Below, piece by piece: positions 5,497 through 29,500 of a stretch of DNA of 64,000 bases. Origin of the DNA: Octopus sinensis (taxonomy: Eukaryota); NCBI RefSeq assembly GCF_006345805.1, contig NC_043001.1:72912001-72976000 (forward strand), in the 5' to 3' direction. The notes below the pieces were generated by a model. It did not search any database. It worked only from the letters and a program-made list of their open reading frames with translations, and had not been told where the DNA came from. Position 1 is the first letter of the stretch. Every line of letters begins with the position of its first letter. The translations under genes were made by a program, and so were the position numbers.

Positions 5497-5535
<39 letters not shown>

Positions 5536-6420
5536 AGGCAGTGAGCTGGCAGAATCATTAACATGCTGGACAAAATGCTTAGCAGTATTTAGTCTGTCGC
5601 TGCATTCTGAGTTCAAATTCCACCAAGGTCGACTTTTCCTTTTATCCTTTTGGGGGTTGATTAATTGAGAACCAGTCAAGTACTGGGGTCGATATAATGA
5701 CTACCCCCTCCCCCCAAATTCCAGGCCCTATGCCTATAGTAGAAAGGATTATTATTATTATATAAGGCAGCGAGCTGGCAGAATTGTTAGCATGCCAGGT
5801 GAAATGCTTAGTGGTATTTTGTCTGCTGATACCTTCTGAGTTCAAATTCCACTGAGGTTCACTTTGCCTTTCATCCTCTCAGGGTCAATAAAATAAGTAC
5901 CAGTTAAACAGTAGGGTCTATGTAATCAATTCATCCCCTCCCCCAAAATTGCTGCCTTTGTGGCAAAAGTTGAAACTATTAGTATTATTATTATAGCAGT
6001 AACCTAGCAGAGTTATTAGCATACTGGACAAAATGCTTAGTGGCATTTCATCTATCTGTGTTTTGAGTTCTAATTCCACTGAGATCATCCTTGCTTTTGT
6101 CCTTTCAGGGCTGATGAAATAAGTACCAGTCACGCACTGGAGTCAATGCAATCAACTAGCTCCCTCCCACAAAATTCCAACTCTTGTGCCTTCAGTAGAA
6201 AGGATTATTGTTATTAAGCTGGCAGAATCATTAGAGTGTCTGATGTAATGTTTAGCTGGCTCTTTATGTTCTAAACTCAAATCTCAATGAGGTCAGCTTT
6301 GCTTTTCATCCTTTCAGGACCAATAAAATAAGTGCTAGTCAAGCACTAGGGTTGATGTAATTAACTAACCCGCTTCCCACTAAAATTGCTGGCTTTGTAC
6401 CAAAACCTGAAACCATTGTT
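3705..6420 (+). mobile_element. Head-to-tail cluster of about 7 SINE family B copies with (ATT)n tails, interrupted by a Dong/R4 element
   Basis: Recurrent 'aaggcagcgagctggcagaat...ttctgagttcaaattccac...gactttgcctttcatcc...agaaaggattattatt' at about 3705, 3925, 4394, 5536, 5764, 5995 and 6217. Confidence 0.85.
4626..5497 (-). mobile_element. 5'-truncated R4/Dong-clade non-LTR retrotransposon (CCHC + restriction-like endonuclease), frameshifted
   Basis: ETEGFIIAAQDQ...CRVC...ETIDHVVSKC...RHD, then LLWNFTIQTDRKIDANRPD...CLLIDMTVP...KYKDL...IPVVIGALG; stop at 4818; (ATT)n on both flanks. Confidence 0.9.
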
Positions 6421-8644: not shown

Positions 8645-9125
8645 TGAGACACCAAAATATTGGCTTCAAACTTTGGCACAAGGCCAGCAAATTCGGGGAA
8701 GTGGATAAGTTGATTACATTGACCCCAGTATCCTGCTGGTACTTATTTTATCGGCCCTGGAATGATGAAAGACAATGTCAACCTCGGGAGAATTTGAACT
8801 CAGAATGTAAAGAAGGACGAAATGCTACTAAGCATTTTGCTTGGCATGCTAATGATTCTGCCACCTTCCCACCTTCTGAGACACCAAAATATTGGCTTCA
8901 AACTTTGGCACAAGGCCAGCAAATTCGGGGAAGTGGATAAGTTGATTACATTGACCCCAGTATCCTGCTGGTACTTATTTTATCGGCCCTGGAATGATGA
9001 AAGACAATGTCAACCTCGGGAGAATTTGAACTCAGAATGTAAAGAAGGACGAAATGCTACTAAGCATTTTGCTTGGCATGCTAATGATTCTGCCACCTTC
9101 CCACCTTCTGAGACACCAAAATATT
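8645..9125 (-). repeat. Exact 232-bp tandem dimer of a family B SINE
   Basis: 8645-8876 appears identical to 8877-9108; the 17-mer TGAGACACCAAAATATT occurs at 8645, 8877 and 9109. Confidence 0.92.
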
Positions 9126-16940: not shown

Positions 16941-18800
16941 CGGCCACGATCAGATGGTTTGCTTACTTGTCACCACCACTGGTATCACAGCTGCAATTTC
17001 CATTGATGTTGATCGACTTCGATTTTGGTTCTGCTTTCTGATATCTGATTTGATAGGACTATGGGACATTTCATTTGCTGTAATAATCTCACCACCTTAA
17101 TAATAAATGTGGTTTCTGATTTTAGCACAAGATACGCAAATTTGAAGGGAGTTGGTTTACTTAATACCATCAACCCCAGTTTGTGATTGGTACTCTGTTT
17201 TTATTGATTTTGGAAGGCTAAAAGTCAAAGATAACCATATAAAGATTACCTTTCATCCCTAAAAATTAGCTTGCAGAAACCATTCCCAAACGAAACCATT
17301 GCATCCTGAAGTAGTCATGATCAGTGTAGTCAGACCCACGTTCTGTGCAGCACAGGATGAATTTATTAAGGGCTTTTACTAATGTTCTTCATATCTAATG
17401 TAAATTTTCCTTTTTTTTATGACTGTTCTTTTACTTCTCTTCTTGTCTCCCCCTCTCTCTGTCTTAGCCTCTCTTTCCCTCTCCCTCTCTTCTGTCTTAC
17501 CCTCTCTTTCCCCTCTCCCTTTCTTCACCACTGTATCTCCCTTGATGGTATTGTGTTGCATGAAATTCAGACTTTAACAGCAATAAATAAGTTTGGTTTT
17601 ATTTATTTATTTTTCCTTATTTCTTTGAGTTTTATTAACAGTGTATGAATAGAACAAAACAGTTGAAATTTCCTGCTTATTATGAATGCTTTACTGTTAA
17701 TGTTTATGGAGAGACTATTCTGAAGTATAAGCATGTGTGATGATAACTCCAGATTGATGCTGGAGCAGGAGGGAGTGGTGAAATATTTATGATCCAACAT
17801 TAATCCCCTAATTCCCCCTCCCTTCCATGTTTACACATTAATATCGAACTCTCTGGTGCCACAGTGTCAACATTCTACAGAACAAGAAACATATTTCTAT
17901 TTAGATGAGGAAATGGGAAGCTTTTATTTAGAAATTTTGCTATCAACCATATTCTTCAGTTTTAGTGGCCATTTGATTCATCATTTACAGGAAGTGTGTA
18001 TATGTATGTATATTCTTGTGTTTGGGTGTGTGTCTATAATAATAACCTTTCTGTTATAGGCACAGGGCCTGGAATATGTTTTGGTGATGGGAGGGTACTA
18101 GTCAATTACATCAGCTCCAGTGTTTCACTGATACTTAATTTATCGACCCCCAAATGGATGAAAGGCAAAGTCAACTTTGGTGGAATTTGAACTCAGTATA
18201 TAGCAGTAGACAAAATACCACTAAAACAGCTGATATAAATATTGGTCAGTGGATCTCTTCAGTCATACTTTACATTGTATTCAAAGAGGGGAAGAGGGAG
18301 TAAAAGAGAGATACAGACAGGACGGGTGTGCATACTAGGCTCGATAGCAGACAATGAGTAAAGGAATGGCATGCGTGTGTGTGCGTGCACACACACACAC
18401 ACAAACATACATACATACATACATTCATACATAAATACATGCCCTCTTGCATACATGTAATTGAAAAACTGGTTAGAATTGGCAACAGGTAGAGCAACTG
18501 TCTAAAAATCCTGCCTCAAATAAATACCTATCTAGCTCTTGCTAGCATAGAAAAACAAACATTCAATGAACAGATAACAGATACACCCGCATACACATAT
18601 GTATATAGGTTACAGGTGTGGCTGTGTGGTAAGAAGCTTGCCTCCCAACCATATGGTTCTGTGTTCAATACCACTGTGTTGCACCTTGGGCAAGTGTCTT
18701 CTACTATAAACTTGGGCCAACCATAGCCTTGTGAGTGGATTTGGTAGACAGAAACTGAAAAAAGCTCATCGTTTATTTATATATATATATATATATATAT

Positions 18801-19468
18801 AAAAGTAGATAACTGGTACAACAAGGCACCAATATTTACTGGAAAATAGCAATCGTAATAAATACGACGCTATTGTATCACTTCACTGTGTATATACTAG
18901 CAAAGACGCGTGTGTGCAACAAACATGAAAAAAATTTGTCTTACCTCTAGGAAGAACATCTGATAAATGGACAACCTAGAATCAGATAATGCAGGACCGG
19001 TTTCTGACTCTTCAAATATGTTTGACAACGTAAATTTGATTAGTCTTCATCAGCTGCATTTACCTAGACAAAATTTCAAATGTTGCCACATCAATACCAG
19101 TATACTTGTCTGAACGCCAAAACGTTAACAGAACGAAAACAGTGAAGAAGTTTCAATGAAATTAATAATGCAATACAAATGTATTACTTTCCAGTAAAGG
19201 ATAGCCCCATAAGGGTAAAATTATACGTATAAAAGTAGATAAATGGTACAATAAGGCACCAATATTTACTAGAAAATAGCAATCATAATAAATACGACGC
19301 TATTGTATAGCTTCACTACGTATATACAAGCAAAGACGTGTGTGTGCAACAAACATGAAAAAAATTTGTCTTACCTCTAGGAAGAACATCTGATAAATGG
19401 ACAACCTAGAATTGGATAATGCAGGACCGGTTTCTTTTACTGGAAAGTAATACATTCGTATTGCATTA
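18801..19468 (-). mobile_element. Hammerhead-bearing non-coding element: 430-bp-period direct repeat plus short inverted head, in (TA)n (Penelope pLTR/retrozyme-like)
   Basis: 18801-19004 resembles 19231-19434; 19435-19468 is the inverse of 19166-19199; hammerhead at 18988-19060; (TA)n on both flanks. Confidence 0.8.
18988..19060 (-). ncRNA. Minimal type I hammerhead ribozyme motif
   Basis: Minus strand reads AATGCAG-CTGATGA-a-GACT.TCAAAT...ATTTGA.AGTC-a-GAAA-CCGG-TC-CTGCATT: perfect 7-bp stem I, palindromic ACCGGT stem III, GUC cleavage between 18995 and 18994. Confidence 0.88.
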
Positions 19469-19723
19469 TATATATATATATATATATAGAAAGAGAGAGA
19501 GAAAGAGCAAGGGTGTGAGAGGTATTGGTACCGAGAAGACCCAAAGAGTGGCAGGTAACACCAAGTAAGTGCTATGGACACACCATAGTTAAACTTTTAG
19601 TTCAATAGTGGTACGAGTGAGGAGTCTAATGTGAGTCTTGTATTAGCATGCATATATATATATATATATATATGTGCATGCTGTGAGTAGTTTTCAGGAC
19701 ATTTTTAAGGAAAAAGATATATA

Positions 19724-19771
19724 GTCTTACAGCTGTTTCTGGGATATTATGGATATCTCTTCATCAGAGAC
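19724..19771 (-). ncRNA. Minimal type I hammerhead ribozyme motif
   Basis: Minus strand reads GTCT-CTGATGA-a-GAGATAT ccata ATATCCC-a-GAAA-CAGCTG-TA-AGAC; palindromic stem III ACAGCTGT, GUA triplet, 4-bp stem I. Confidence 0.72.
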
Positions 19772-20324
19772 GATGTGAGATGGTTAAATAGAGGTAAGTA
19801 TTTGAGTTTGAAATTAGGAATTATTATGGAAAAGGAGGAGATAGCAAATATAGAGGTGAAAGGAGAATGACAGTAGAAATAAAATATATAAAGATTGTAG
19901 TTGCAGTTCCATTATTCGAAGAAAGTGGTAAAAAAGTTTCCTGTACATGATATGTAAGTTCCAATAGTAGTTTGTTTAGTCATTTCAAAGTATGGAGCCA
20001 TGGATTCTGTGTTACTCATTCGAAAGGATCTTCACACCATAAGACCCTTTCGAATGAACAACCCAGAATCCACAGCTCCATACTTTGAAACGACCAAACA
20101 TGAACTACTACTGGTACTAACATACCATGTACGGGAAACTTTTTTATCACTTCTGTACACCACTTTCTTCAAATAATGGAACTGAAACTACAATATCTCT
20201 ATATATTTTATATTTCATTTCTACTTTCATTCTTATTTCCCTCTATATTCCCTATCTCCTCCTTTTCCATAATAATTCCTTATTTCGAACTCAAATATTT
20301 ACCTCTATTTAACCATCTCACATC

Positions 20325-20372
20325 GTCTTTGATGAAGCGATATCCATAATATTCCAGAAACAGCTGTAAGAC
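20325..20372 (+). ncRNA. Degenerate hammerhead motif (core C3->U), inverted partner of 19724-19771
   Basis: GTCT-TTGATGA-agcgatatccataatattcca-GAAA-CAGCTG-TA-AGAC. Confidence 0.55.
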
Positions 20373-21497
20373 TGTATCTATATCTTTTTCCTTATAAATG
20401 TCCTGTAAACTACTCACAGCTTTGGCTTTATCTCATTTTGTCTAATATATGTGTGCGTGTGTGTGTAAAATGTTATATAGTAACGGAACAGTTGTGGTAG
20501 TGGGTGGAGAGGCAGGCCAATATACTGATATATAATGATACAGTTAGGAAGGGTGTGTGTGTCTGCATCTGTGCACGCATGCACACACACACACACAATA
20601 ACAGAAATGGCAATGACAGAGAGGAGGAAACAGAAGAGAGCATAGGATTGGTATAGATGTTTAAATATGTTTTTCTAGACATTTTGACATTTTCTATAAA
20701 CAGCAGTCATATCAATATCTTCTGGATTTTGTTTGTGTATGTATATATATATACCTGTGTGTATGAGTGTGTCTCTGTATTTGTGTGCATCCATATATAT
20801 GCATGTTTGCATATTTGTGTGTGTGCACGTGCCTAAGTATGTATGGATGTTTGCATATATGTATTTGTGCACATGTATGTGTATGGGTAAGCATGTGCAG
20901 GTATGACCATATGGTTGAGAAGTTGGTCTTGCAACCATGTAGCTTCAGGTTCAGCCCTACTGCATGGCGCTTTAGTCTCCTACTATAGCCCCAGGCATTT
21001 CAATGCCTTGTGAATGGATTTGGTTGATGCAAACTGAAAGAAGCCCATCACATGTATGTAGACACACTTACACACACTGAAATCGATGTGATTCATTTGT
21101 GCATGGAAAAGTGGACATTAAAATGATGATGATGTTGTGTGTGTGTGTGTATAAAAGCACCTAACACACTGTAAAGTGGATGACATTAGGAAGGGCATCC
21201 AGCTGTAGAAACCATACCAAATCAGTCTGGTGTAGCTCCCTAGCTTGTCAGCTCTGGTCACACTGTCCAACCCATGGACAACAGACATTAAATGATGATG
21301 ATATATATTTATGAAGTTTGCTTCTCAACCATAAGATATTGCCATGGCATGGCACGCTGGGCAAGTGCATTCTGTTATAGTTTCAGATCAATCAAAACTG
21401 AAAGAAGCCCATCATATACATGTGCATGTGTATCTGTGACCTGTGCGTGGCCATGAGAAAATATGATCTTACTTGGAAACAGCTTAGGATTGTTGAT

Positions 21498-26565: not shown

Positions 26566-29500
26566 ACACTTTAAGCAAGTCTCTTCCATCACAGCTTTGT
26601 GTTGACCAATGCTTCATGAATAAAATCTGACAAACTGTGTAAAACATTAGAGAGATTGTTTAATATCAGAGCCTCATTGACCTGATAGAAATAGCAACCA
26701 AACCTCTCTCACATTACAATCAAGTATCCAGAATAGCATGACAGTCACATGTTTATTTTTTCCATTTATTTTCCCATTTTCTCCATATTAGTATAGCTTG
26801 GACAGAAATAGTTTTGTGGCAGGATTTTATGGCCAGATGCTCTTCTTGTCACCTACCTTCGTTTGTTTTTCAGTTAAGAAGTTTTATAGTCCACAAGTCT
26901 TTGAAAGCATGGAGCAATCAGTTGTAATGTCATCACAGAATGTCAACATCAACACCACTTCTTTGTTCAAATGGTGACAATTGAAATGTTAACATTCATT
27001 GACACATCATGATCATCACATCTACTTTTGTATGTTTGCATGAGTTATCAGAATTTATTGGCTGAGATTTTCTACAATCGGTTGCCCCTCCTGTCACCAA
27101 TCCTCACTTATATTGAGGCAAGCTAATATTTCCTCCTGATCAGGTATGTTTTTGCAGAATATTGGAAATGAATGACACCACTTTTATGACAGGGTCACTT
27201 GTTTACAACTATCATATGGTGTCAAGACAATGAGACATAAACATACACACACTCATAACTCTGTCTCTCACACACATACATGCATGATGGACTTTTTCCA
27301 GTTTATGCCTACCAAACCCGCTCATATGACTTTGGTCAGCCTGGGACTGCAGTAAAAGATACTTGTCCAAAGTACCACAAAGTGGGACTGAACCCAGAAC
27401 CATGTGGTTGGAAAGCAAGCATCTTCATCACATAGCCATACCTGAATGTACTACATAGATATATTTTATTAATAAACTGTGGAAGTTAGAGAGTGACTCA
27501 AGTTTGTGCATTAGCACTTATCAATGCACTGAATTTCCAGACCTTTTTGCTAGTTATAAATAAAATATATGTTTTCCTGTTTGCGTCACCAAACACATAG
27601 ACACACACACGTATAATAATGTTCCATGATGGTAAGATCAACAAAAAAGGTACTTCATCTAGTGAGAGATAAATATTATTTAATAGACACAATACATGAT
27701 TCTATGTGCTACTACTAGTTTCATGTGTTGAGAACATCCCAAACAATGTCCTATAATACGCCTGACATTTCAGCACAGTCATCAGGCACAGCACACACGG
27801 CCTAATGAGCAAAAAATTGAATGAGAGAAGAAACGAGAAAAGGCGAGAAGGAAGTATATAGAAAAAGTGGAAGATTTAAAAAAAACAACAGAAAATGAAA
27901 AAGTAATTAGAAAGAAGCAAAAGGGGGATGATGATACTATGATAGGGTTGATCCATTTTCTGTCTAACAAATTCATTCATAAGGCATTGGTTAACCCAGG
28001 GTAATAGTAGAAAATGCTATATGATAATCCTAAATATGCAACACCTAACAGAATGTCAGGACAGTCTTGGGTAGAAACTCTTTGATCATTGGCCTTCTTG
28101 GTTGTAATTCATCTGGGAGCAAAACTACTAATGTTGTTTTGAATGCTGGTCTAGTTGCTGACATAATCCAAAACACTACTGTTATCTTTCTGACTGATAT
28201 AACAACAATAGACTGAGATTAGTTTGTGTGTTGACCATCCCACCAACATTGAAGTCCTCCTATGCACAGCTGAGAGCCAAGCACTTGCTGATGATACTGT
28301 AAATAAAAGATACAACTAATAGTTTTGATGGTGTTTGTTAAATGCTGCCTGAAATGAGGATAGTCAAGCAGCAATTATTTTAGAAATTATGCTATGATAA
28401 ACAGTAACATTTGGAGATTCTGAAGAGAATCATCATCATTGTCATTTTAACATCCACTTTTCTATGCTTGCATGGGTCTGATTCAGTTTTATCAACGAAG
28501 ACTTTCTATGGTCTAATGCCCTTCCTGTCACCAACCCTCACCTGTTTCCAAGTAAGGTGATATTTCCCCATAGCCAGACAGGTTTTTTTGCAGAGGAGAT
28601 TGGAAATGGACACTGCTTGTAATGATGATGAATCACATTTGTAACTATTATGTGATGTCAAAACAACGAGACACAAGCATATACAAACACACACACATAT
28701 ATACTTTCCCAAGGTGCCACAACACTGGGACTGATCCCAAAATCAAACTTCTTAATCATACAGCCACATCTTTAGAAGAAAGCTAAGAATTTAGGGATGT
28801 GTTTGTTTTGTATGTGAGTGTTGAGGAGGTGCTTAGGATGTGAAATTTTGGGGTTGTTGTTTATCTCCAGACAAGATATTAAATCATACAAAACTTTTAT
28901 CAAAGGCAAACCAAGAGTGATTACCTAGTCTCTTTCATTCAGGCACAAGTATTTAGGACTACATTTCTTTTTTGTTTTATAAGACAAAATGTGATTTAAG
29001 GGAAGTTTGGCTGCTATTTCTAACAAGTCAAGTGACCATACAAGTGCTTCCTTGTTGCTTTTTCCTTTGTCAGCAGTGTATTGGTAGAGATGATTGAGCA
29101 TCAGACAGATTACTTCTAATTATTTATTCTACCTCTTTGTGCTCTGAGTTCAAATTCTGCTGAAGTCAGCCTTGCCTCTTATTGATGAATAAAAGTACCA
29201 ATTCTGGGCAGTGGATTGACAGAACAGTAGGAATGTCAGACTGGATTCCTTGCATTATTCCAGTTCTTTGCATTCTGAGCTCAAATCCACCACAGCCTAC
29301 ATGGATAGTAGACTTAATCCATATCCTGGATTAATACTCCACCAGGCACCTTGAGTGTCTTTTAGTGGAGTTCACACTGTTGCAAGCATTCGGGCTCAGT
29401 CTCTGGTTTGAGTTTACATTCCTCCCTTCTGTGTCAGATGCTCTGTAAAGATTCATGGCTCTTGCTTTCTTTCCTTGCTGAAGGATAAAAGATAAATCAG

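Follow-up and report, generated by a model that had tools for sequence, protein, structure and literature searches.

In the genome of Octopus sinensis, a short repeated unit between TA runs contains a hammerhead ribozyme motif. Which kind of element left this insertion, whose enzymes copied it, and does its ribozyme take part in the copying? We addressed these questions by computational analysis of the surrounding 64,000 nt (the window) and of the 2.72 Gb genome sequence.

Structure of the window element

Read on the minus strand, the element consists of a (TA)n run, an inverted piece, half a hammerhead, a stretch of 430 nt, a further 194 nt and a second (TA)n run. We numbered the unit u1–u430, u1 being the first base past the hammerhead cut. 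The 5' flanking (TA)n (19470–19488), likely the target microsatellite, is followed by an inverted, 5'-truncated piece (19433–19469, plus strand) which corresponds to u224–u260 and has the second ('tail') end of the family described below as its 3' end. The upstream half hammerhead (19425–19434, minus strand) is truncated and contains GAAACCGGTC without CUGAUGA. A full lap of the ORF-less unit, u1–u430, extends from cut site to cut site (18995–19424, minus strand) and terminates in a complete type I hammerhead (18988–19060, minus strand; cut after GUC, 18995). The partial second lap, u1–u194 (18801–18994, minus strand), forms a pseudo-LTR (pLTR) and stops at CTACTTTT, the main fixed 3' end of the family, beside the 3' flanking (TA)n (18778–18800).

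Most of this outline agrees with the first-pass annotation, which had been made from the sequence of the window. The second GAAACCGGTC-CTGCATT does lie exactly 430 nt upstream (19434–19418), (TA)n is seen on both flanks, and the upstream copy is without CUGAUGA as first noted. The inverted head, described as 34 bp long, is present with a length of 37 nt at 95% identity (19433–19469 versus 19165–19201); it is placed 5' of the upstream half-site on the minus strand. A direct repeat of 214 nt with 93% identity (19222–19435 versus 18792–19005) begins at the second GAAACCGGTC-CTGCATT, and thus the repeated part extends far beyond the ribozyme half. Among stop-to-stop frames that overlap the element, none exceeds 98 aa, and the frame of that length crosses the TA repeat, in line with the earlier statement that no meaningful ORF is present.

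The hammerhead comprises, on the minus strand, a 7-bp stem I (AATGCAG, 19060–19054, with CTGCATT, 18994–18988), the core CTGATGA (19053–19047), a 42-nt stem II region (19046–19005) and GAAACCGGTC (19004–18995), the GUC cleavage triplet reaching to 18995. The CUGANGA and GAAA core, the NUH site and the closing stem I are all present. A search of the window for the core pattern gives a single match, compared with none in 100 shuffles. The proposed minus-strand hammerhead with 7-bp stem I and palindromic ACCGGT stem III (19060–18988) is confirmed, including the A·A beside its core. The term 'minimal' holds for the very short stem III, a palindromic ACCGGU, and not for stem II, which is long (4 + 5–6 + 3–4 bp). 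A check against Rfam gave HH9 as the best ribozyme match (24.2 bits, E 0.021), short of the gathering score of 52.

Dimer cleavage is described for PLE (Penelope-like element) hammerheads (PMC4209133; also in sections of the review PMC6765202), and a 6-bp swapped stem III is predicted here. When the segment between the upstream half-site and the GUC farther downstream is folded, the prediction is a hammerhead of this swapped dimer type, ACCGGU forming the 6-bp stem III. This predicted fold is disrupted by the inverted head once the entire insertion is folded. As the window copy has one complete ribozyme, a dimer mechanism could cut in cis at the upstream site only.

Further putative signals are located on the same strand. 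A candidate 5' splice donor, GAG/GTAAGA, is found at 19369–19377 (GT at 19374) and again at 18939–18947, and a putative branch/3' splice acceptor region ending in TTCAG (u315) may be assigned to 19110–19129. Judged from the sequence, donor and acceptor candidate likely mark a retained intron of the PLE type. A hairpin, GGT(G/A)C...GT(A/G)CC, directly precedes the first fixed 3' end (19245–19260; second copy at 18815–18830) and is likely a signal for initiation of reverse transcription (RT). Positions 19156–19230 correspond to the 'tail' segment, which separates the two fixed 3' ends and covers u195 to u260–269. A spliced-junction pattern was found at none of 318 loci, which is uninformative because spliced RNA would be without the RT start sites. 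Four contig sets of uncertain, possibly RNA, type contain pieces of the family with no joint at cut or splice sites; ends, strand and level are invisible in contigs. The unit folds as a predicted rod (linear z −4.8; circular z −5.1 with 62% paired; antisense −85 kcal/mol).

Other repeats were noticed in the window. An unrelated hammerhead family is represented 210 nt away (19680–20420) by a foldback whose two head-to-head arms measure about 370 nt each. Its hammerhead has the core CTGATGA (19767, minus strand), a palindromic ACAGCTGT stem III, a GUA site (19728) and A·A as the 10.1/11.1 combination; the family yielded 2445 first-look candidates of 79–87% identity. A relaxed scan gave a weaker hammerhead-like match at 27710–27790 (minus strand), with a 5-bp stem I, a long spacer and ACTAGTAGT. 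Other dispersed-repeat-like sequence is tandemly duplicated at 8645–9125 (period 232 nt, copies 100% identical) and at 5519–6216 (period 229 nt).

A dispersed family of partial tandem copies

Short partial-tandem copies, at least several hundred in number, make up a family that is dispersed over the genome. The DNA search returned 2193 first-look candidates, which do not represent a copy number and of which 40 were scored. Exact patterns for three short words gave 94, 140 and 474 genome matches, the last for a 20-mer, and the intact core with stem I gave 229 exact matches genome-wide; all controls gave 0. When mapped onto the tandem unit, the loci up to L190 provided 156 distinct segments longer than 100 nt, and a later independent sample provided 95 segments, 82 of them new. 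All mapped segments are circularly permuted pieces of the 430-nt unit, which has a GC content of 33%.

The 3' ends are fixed. Among 84 segments of the first pattern sample, inspected by eye, 67 end at u191–204, ten at u257–269 and seven elsewhere. The main end is placed near u194 despite the spread because BLAST runs on into TA; (TA)n microsatellites were seen beside the 3' ends of fetched copies (flanks of 35–90 nt, by eye). The 5' ends are variable and 5' truncation is common. Inverted 5' pieces recur in many copies and, as in the window, often terminate at the second 3' end (e.g. L116/L117).

Copies longer than one unit always re-enter the 430-nt unit. The longest have 892, about 820 and 800 nt (about two laps), and none of those seen goes beyond about 2.1 laps. 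In 46 insertions with an overlap of at least 60 nt, the sequence directly upstream of the pLTR is another lap and never unique sequence. The laps of one insertion differ less among themselves than from the median other copy in 45 of these 46 cases; they have subfamily and sometimes rare alleles in common, and recurrent differences between upstream and downstream lap are confined to the 3' end itself. Given these near-identical laps, the template was likely a single monomer sequence read repeatedly, via a circle or a template jump. At L122 (3009–3671), the copy breaks off at u381, within the ribozyme, and resumes at u2, immediately past the cut, possibly a template switch at a cleaved end.

The first-pass annotation had proposed a non-autonomous self-cleaving family whose tandem copies could release a unit-length RNA. 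The family is indeed multi-copy, ORF-less and hammerhead-bearing, with ends of the PLE type; no long tandem arrays came to light. A pair of exact 3' half-sites one unit apart occurs at five places genome-wide, with no trimer, as seen with exact patterns, which overlook diverged copies, and in an assembly in which arrays may collapse. Two complete ribozymes are present at a few loci (L002, L004, L010, L011, L015–L017, L022, L029), the window copy not being among them. It had also been argued that constant attachment of the copies to a PLE ORF would make the element an ordinary pLTR. Such attachment was not observed: in flanks of 35–90 nt viewed by eye, no family copy was seen to enter an ORF.

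The same annotation had asked for conservation of the core or covariation of the stems among genomic copies; the core is conserved, and stem II shows one compensated pair. The CUGAUGA positions are at least 97% invariant, the cleavage triplet alternates chiefly between GUC and GUA, and stem II contains a compensated C-G to U-A pair in 5 of 33 rows. The covariation score of stem II was matched by 0 of 500 shuffles, with just two pairs varying on both sides and the rows being related. Covariation beyond the ribozyme is nearly absent, with a double change in 3 of the 123 pairs of the rod fold. A G10.1-C11.1 pair is typical of PLE minimal hammerheads (PMC4209133). It is not generally kept here: among the first 100 listed cores, counted by eye, A-U is the most frequent (46), followed by the A·A of the window type (25), G-C (11), G-U (9) and other combinations (9). 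The A·A of the window is thus a trait of a subfamily that spread.

Autonomous elements and a sister family in the same genome

PLEs with long open RT and GIY-YIG frames (781 and 775 aa, stop to stop) are encoded in the genome. Several PLE families have a Cys-rich linker of the Neptune/Nematis type, the clade being assigned by the linker alone. Their 3' regions carry hammerheads with palindromic stem III and stop at TA runs. A scan for the GIY-YIG family gave 5029 candidates, from which 30 and 20 loci were compared with the unit. None of these 50 loci, a small sample with one family dominant, revealed a meaningful BLASTN match to the unit or the exact GGTAC-GTACC hairpin pattern; we therefore infer a partner PLE rather than identify one. 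Many GIY-YIG matches have identical scores and open frames of 781 aa, which suggests a young, possibly active PLE family.

Altered hammerhead cores are present in Neptune/Nematis-type PLEs of this genome (L037, L038, L047, L051–L053, L049, L276). The dominant family of this type has U3-A8 (TTGATAA), L049 has A3-U8 (ATGAATA) together with the same GAAACCGGTC as the window, and L276 has CUGAAGA.

An ORF-bearing element was also sought with a core pattern containing a shorter stem II. The matches (652 candidates) instead represent a second ORF-less family, family B, with a unit of about 446 nt. Its members (L282–L313, e.g. L285 1408–2019) were compared by alignment tools and show a partial-tandem and inverted structure like that of the 430-nt family. 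Family B is colinear with u1–u200. It keeps the ACCGGU palindrome, the GAG/GTAAGA donor about 45–50 nt past the cut and the GGTAC-GTACC hairpin adjoining the first 3' end. Its stem I occurs in CTTGG/CCAAG-like and CTCGG/CCGAG-like variants, and a partial unit folds weakly (z −1.6).

Mode of copying and relation to known elements

We consider it probable that the window element is an insertion of a non-autonomous, retrozyme-type PLE with a hammerhead motif, copied in trans by autonomous PLEs. Mobilisation was likely effected by the Neptune/Nematis-type PLEs of the O. sinensis genome. Sections of PMC8557442 describe as PLE signatures partial tandems, truncated 5' ends, inversion of a 5' copy, a tail and insertion into microsatellites; the family shows partial tandems with pLTR, 5' truncation, inverted 5'-truncated copies, two 3' ends and (TA)n flanks. 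The PLE tail was shown to arise from two internal RT start sites (PMC11167929), and two adjacent internal RT start sites with a tail constitute a PLE-specific signature, which supports copying by a PLE. A single ORF with RT and GIY-YIG between pLTRs, the hallmark of autonomous EN+ PLEs, is absent from the element.

In the proposed mechanism, a PLE protein would nick (TA)n DNA, and RT would begin within the unit RNA at about u195 or about u260–269, beside the conserved hairpins. It would proceed upstream through the ribozyme and, in long copies, enter a second lap, either around a ligated 430-nt circle or by a jump on a monomer. The hammerhead would cut slowly only, as a swapped dimer via ACCGGU, and some templates would gain a 5' end at u1. 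Tentatively, the family may be a PLE parasite that cycles via a ribozyme-cut, ligated 430-nt RNA circle, primed internally by the PLE and copied by a rolling-circle mode. If so, its junctions (RT starts, homogenised laps and u1 ends) would represent a fossil record of hammerhead cleavage in vivo, and direct junction-level evidence of retrozyme-type units using PLE machinery.

It is doubtful that the family is a canonical metazoan non-LTR retrozyme, in which arrays give rise to abundant circular RNAs of about 430 nt that serve as rolling-circle templates. Such a retrozyme would have the ORF-less unit, the GC content of 33%, the stable predicted circular fold (z −5.1), the near-identical laps in insertions longer than the unit and the two complete ribozymes at L002, L004, L011 and L016. 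The five two-site places without a trimer in the whole genome, that is the lack of arrays, speak against it, as does the ribozyme, which is of the minimal, palindromic PLE type. The length of 430 nt slightly exceeds the 170–400 nt of expressed invertebrate retrozymes, while lying within their repeat range of 150–450 bp (PMC7229834). This explanation overlaps with copying of a non-autonomous element by PLEs and is distinct only in claiming abundant circles; Li et al. (2026, bioRxiv 10.64898/2026.07.22.740005) argue that metazoan non-LTR retrozymes themselves derive from PLEs and are non-autonomous.

Do the insertions record cleavage at all? In the first pattern sample, of which 80 of 84 segments were kept (three duplicates and one internally deleted piece were dropped), 11 of 80 tracks stop in u1–u8 versus 2.9 expected (p 2e-4); minus the discovery loci, the figures are 8 versus 2.6 (p 0.006). 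The clustering was not replicated in the independent sample (3 stops in this 8-nt window versus 2.2 expected, p 0.38), where two of the three stops begin exactly at u1. Exact u1 starts were found in four independent insertions (L091, L003/L121, L214, L236) versus about 0.6 expected by a hand estimate from hazards. As a record of cleavage, the clustering of 5' ends at the cut site is no more than suggestive. About 85% of the tracks pass through the cut site (11 stops against roughly 80 passes), and as most tracks read through, uncut or religated RNA is the main template.

This read-through and the weak independent sample would also be expected if the ribozyme were a vestigial passenger, the copies being made from uncut linear read-through RNA that stems from older partial tandems, and the ends near u1 reflecting stalling of RT at stem I. 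The A·A combination at 10.1/11.1, found in 25 of 100 listed cores, belongs to a subfamily that spread successfully, and cleavage is dispensable in vitro for an anole PLE, where hammerhead mutants did not block insertion and no RNA ends were found at the cut site (PMC11167929). The role of the ribozyme in EN+ PLEs is called unclear in sections of PMC8557442, and eight of nine Xenopus dimers were without cleavage in vitro (Li et al. 2026, bioRxiv 10.64898/2026.07.22.740005). We nevertheless regard a vestigial ribozyme as unlikely, in view of the invariant CUGAUGA, the restriction of the triplet mainly to GUC/GUA, the compensation in stem II and the four exact-u1 insertions; moreover, purely linear copying would not maintain homogenised laps.

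It is quite improbable that the family represents the 3' pLTR, in tandem repetition, of an ordinary PLE with an ORF that every copy has lost by 5' truncation. PLE insertions have undergone heavy 5' truncation and most of them are solo pLTRs (PMC4209133 and sections of PMC8557442), axolotl PLEs have tandem minimal hammerheads (PMC7229834), and the limit of about 2.1 laps leaves room for an ORF farther upstream. Against this, another lap, never unique sequence, was found upstream of the pLTR in 46 of 46 insertions, the laps have subfamily alleles in common, which a fixed tandem UTR would not regenerate, and the ORF-less design is repeated in several subfamilies and in the sister family. That a satellite or a local duplication mimics a family, the ribozyme-like motif being due to chance, has practically no probability. 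A few local duplications including flanks might be quoted for it (L108/L109, L111/L112, L122); it is refuted by the dispersal of copies over many large contigs, by the junctions with their fixed 3' ends and by the core's occurrence in 0 of 100 shuffles.

As a PLE-copied, non-autonomous element, the family can be placed among known systems. With metazoan non-LTR retrozymes (PMC7229834) it shares an ORF-less unit of a few hundred nucleotides, one type I hammerhead per unit, low GC content, a stable self-paired fold (here predicted) and coexisting PLEs. Unlike the retrozymes, which form arrays, it consists of dispersed partial tandems of at most about two laps, and it has a minimal palindromic ribozyme, a long stem II and PLE tail and inversion junctions. 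Linear and circular RNA are abundant in vivo for retrozymes; for the 430-nt unit a circle is hypothetical. Like the pLTR hammerheads of EN+ PLEs (PMC4209133; in this genome, the Neptune/Nematis-type elements L271 and L280), its ribozyme is of type I with palindromic stem III and long stem II, and the partial tandem, inverted 5' copy, tail and TA-rich targets are common to both, as is a putative intron near the ribozyme. It differs from EN+ PLEs in having no ORF between the repeats, in its size (430 nt versus about 3 kb), in a tail of about 65–75 nt instead of 30–40 and in having G10.1-C11.1 in only 11 of 100 listed cores.

Chlamydomonas MRC1, as portrayed in sections of PMC8557442, is likewise ORF-less, forms pLTRs and head-to-tail insertions and likely borrows PLE enzymes. 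According to the same sections, such non-autonomous PLEs generally share the 3' end with their autonomous partner, whereas none was found for our family, and most Chlamys are without canonical hammerheads, whereas our family has one. The anole Poseidon element PAc (Frangieh et al. 2024, PMC11167929) also has two internal RT starts downstream of a hammerhead and AT-rich targets; it is, however, autonomous, with starts about 85–120 nt past the cut and in the ORF, compared with non-coding starts at about 195 and 260–269 nt in our family. A non-autonomous hammerhead-bearing PLE derivative fits best, a category already known from MRC1 (sections of PMC8557442). We found no published account of such a family in the octopus and cephalopod hammerhead or Penelope literature, repeat libraries and supplements aside; related molluscan families may appear in the supplements of PMC7229834 and PMC4209133. 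The giant-squid paper gives just a count of 235 Hammerhead_1 matches.

The kind of element is thus known, both from retrozymes as PLE derivatives and from non-autonomous PLEs, and the family represents a clean model and a natural data set for the PLE mechanism. Hundreds of independent insertions of the 430-nt unit record the start and end points of RT. By virtue of this record, cutting by PLE-type minimal hammerheads in vivo becomes testable from genome data alone, as does the origin of PLE insertions longer than the unit, from a circle or from a template jump.
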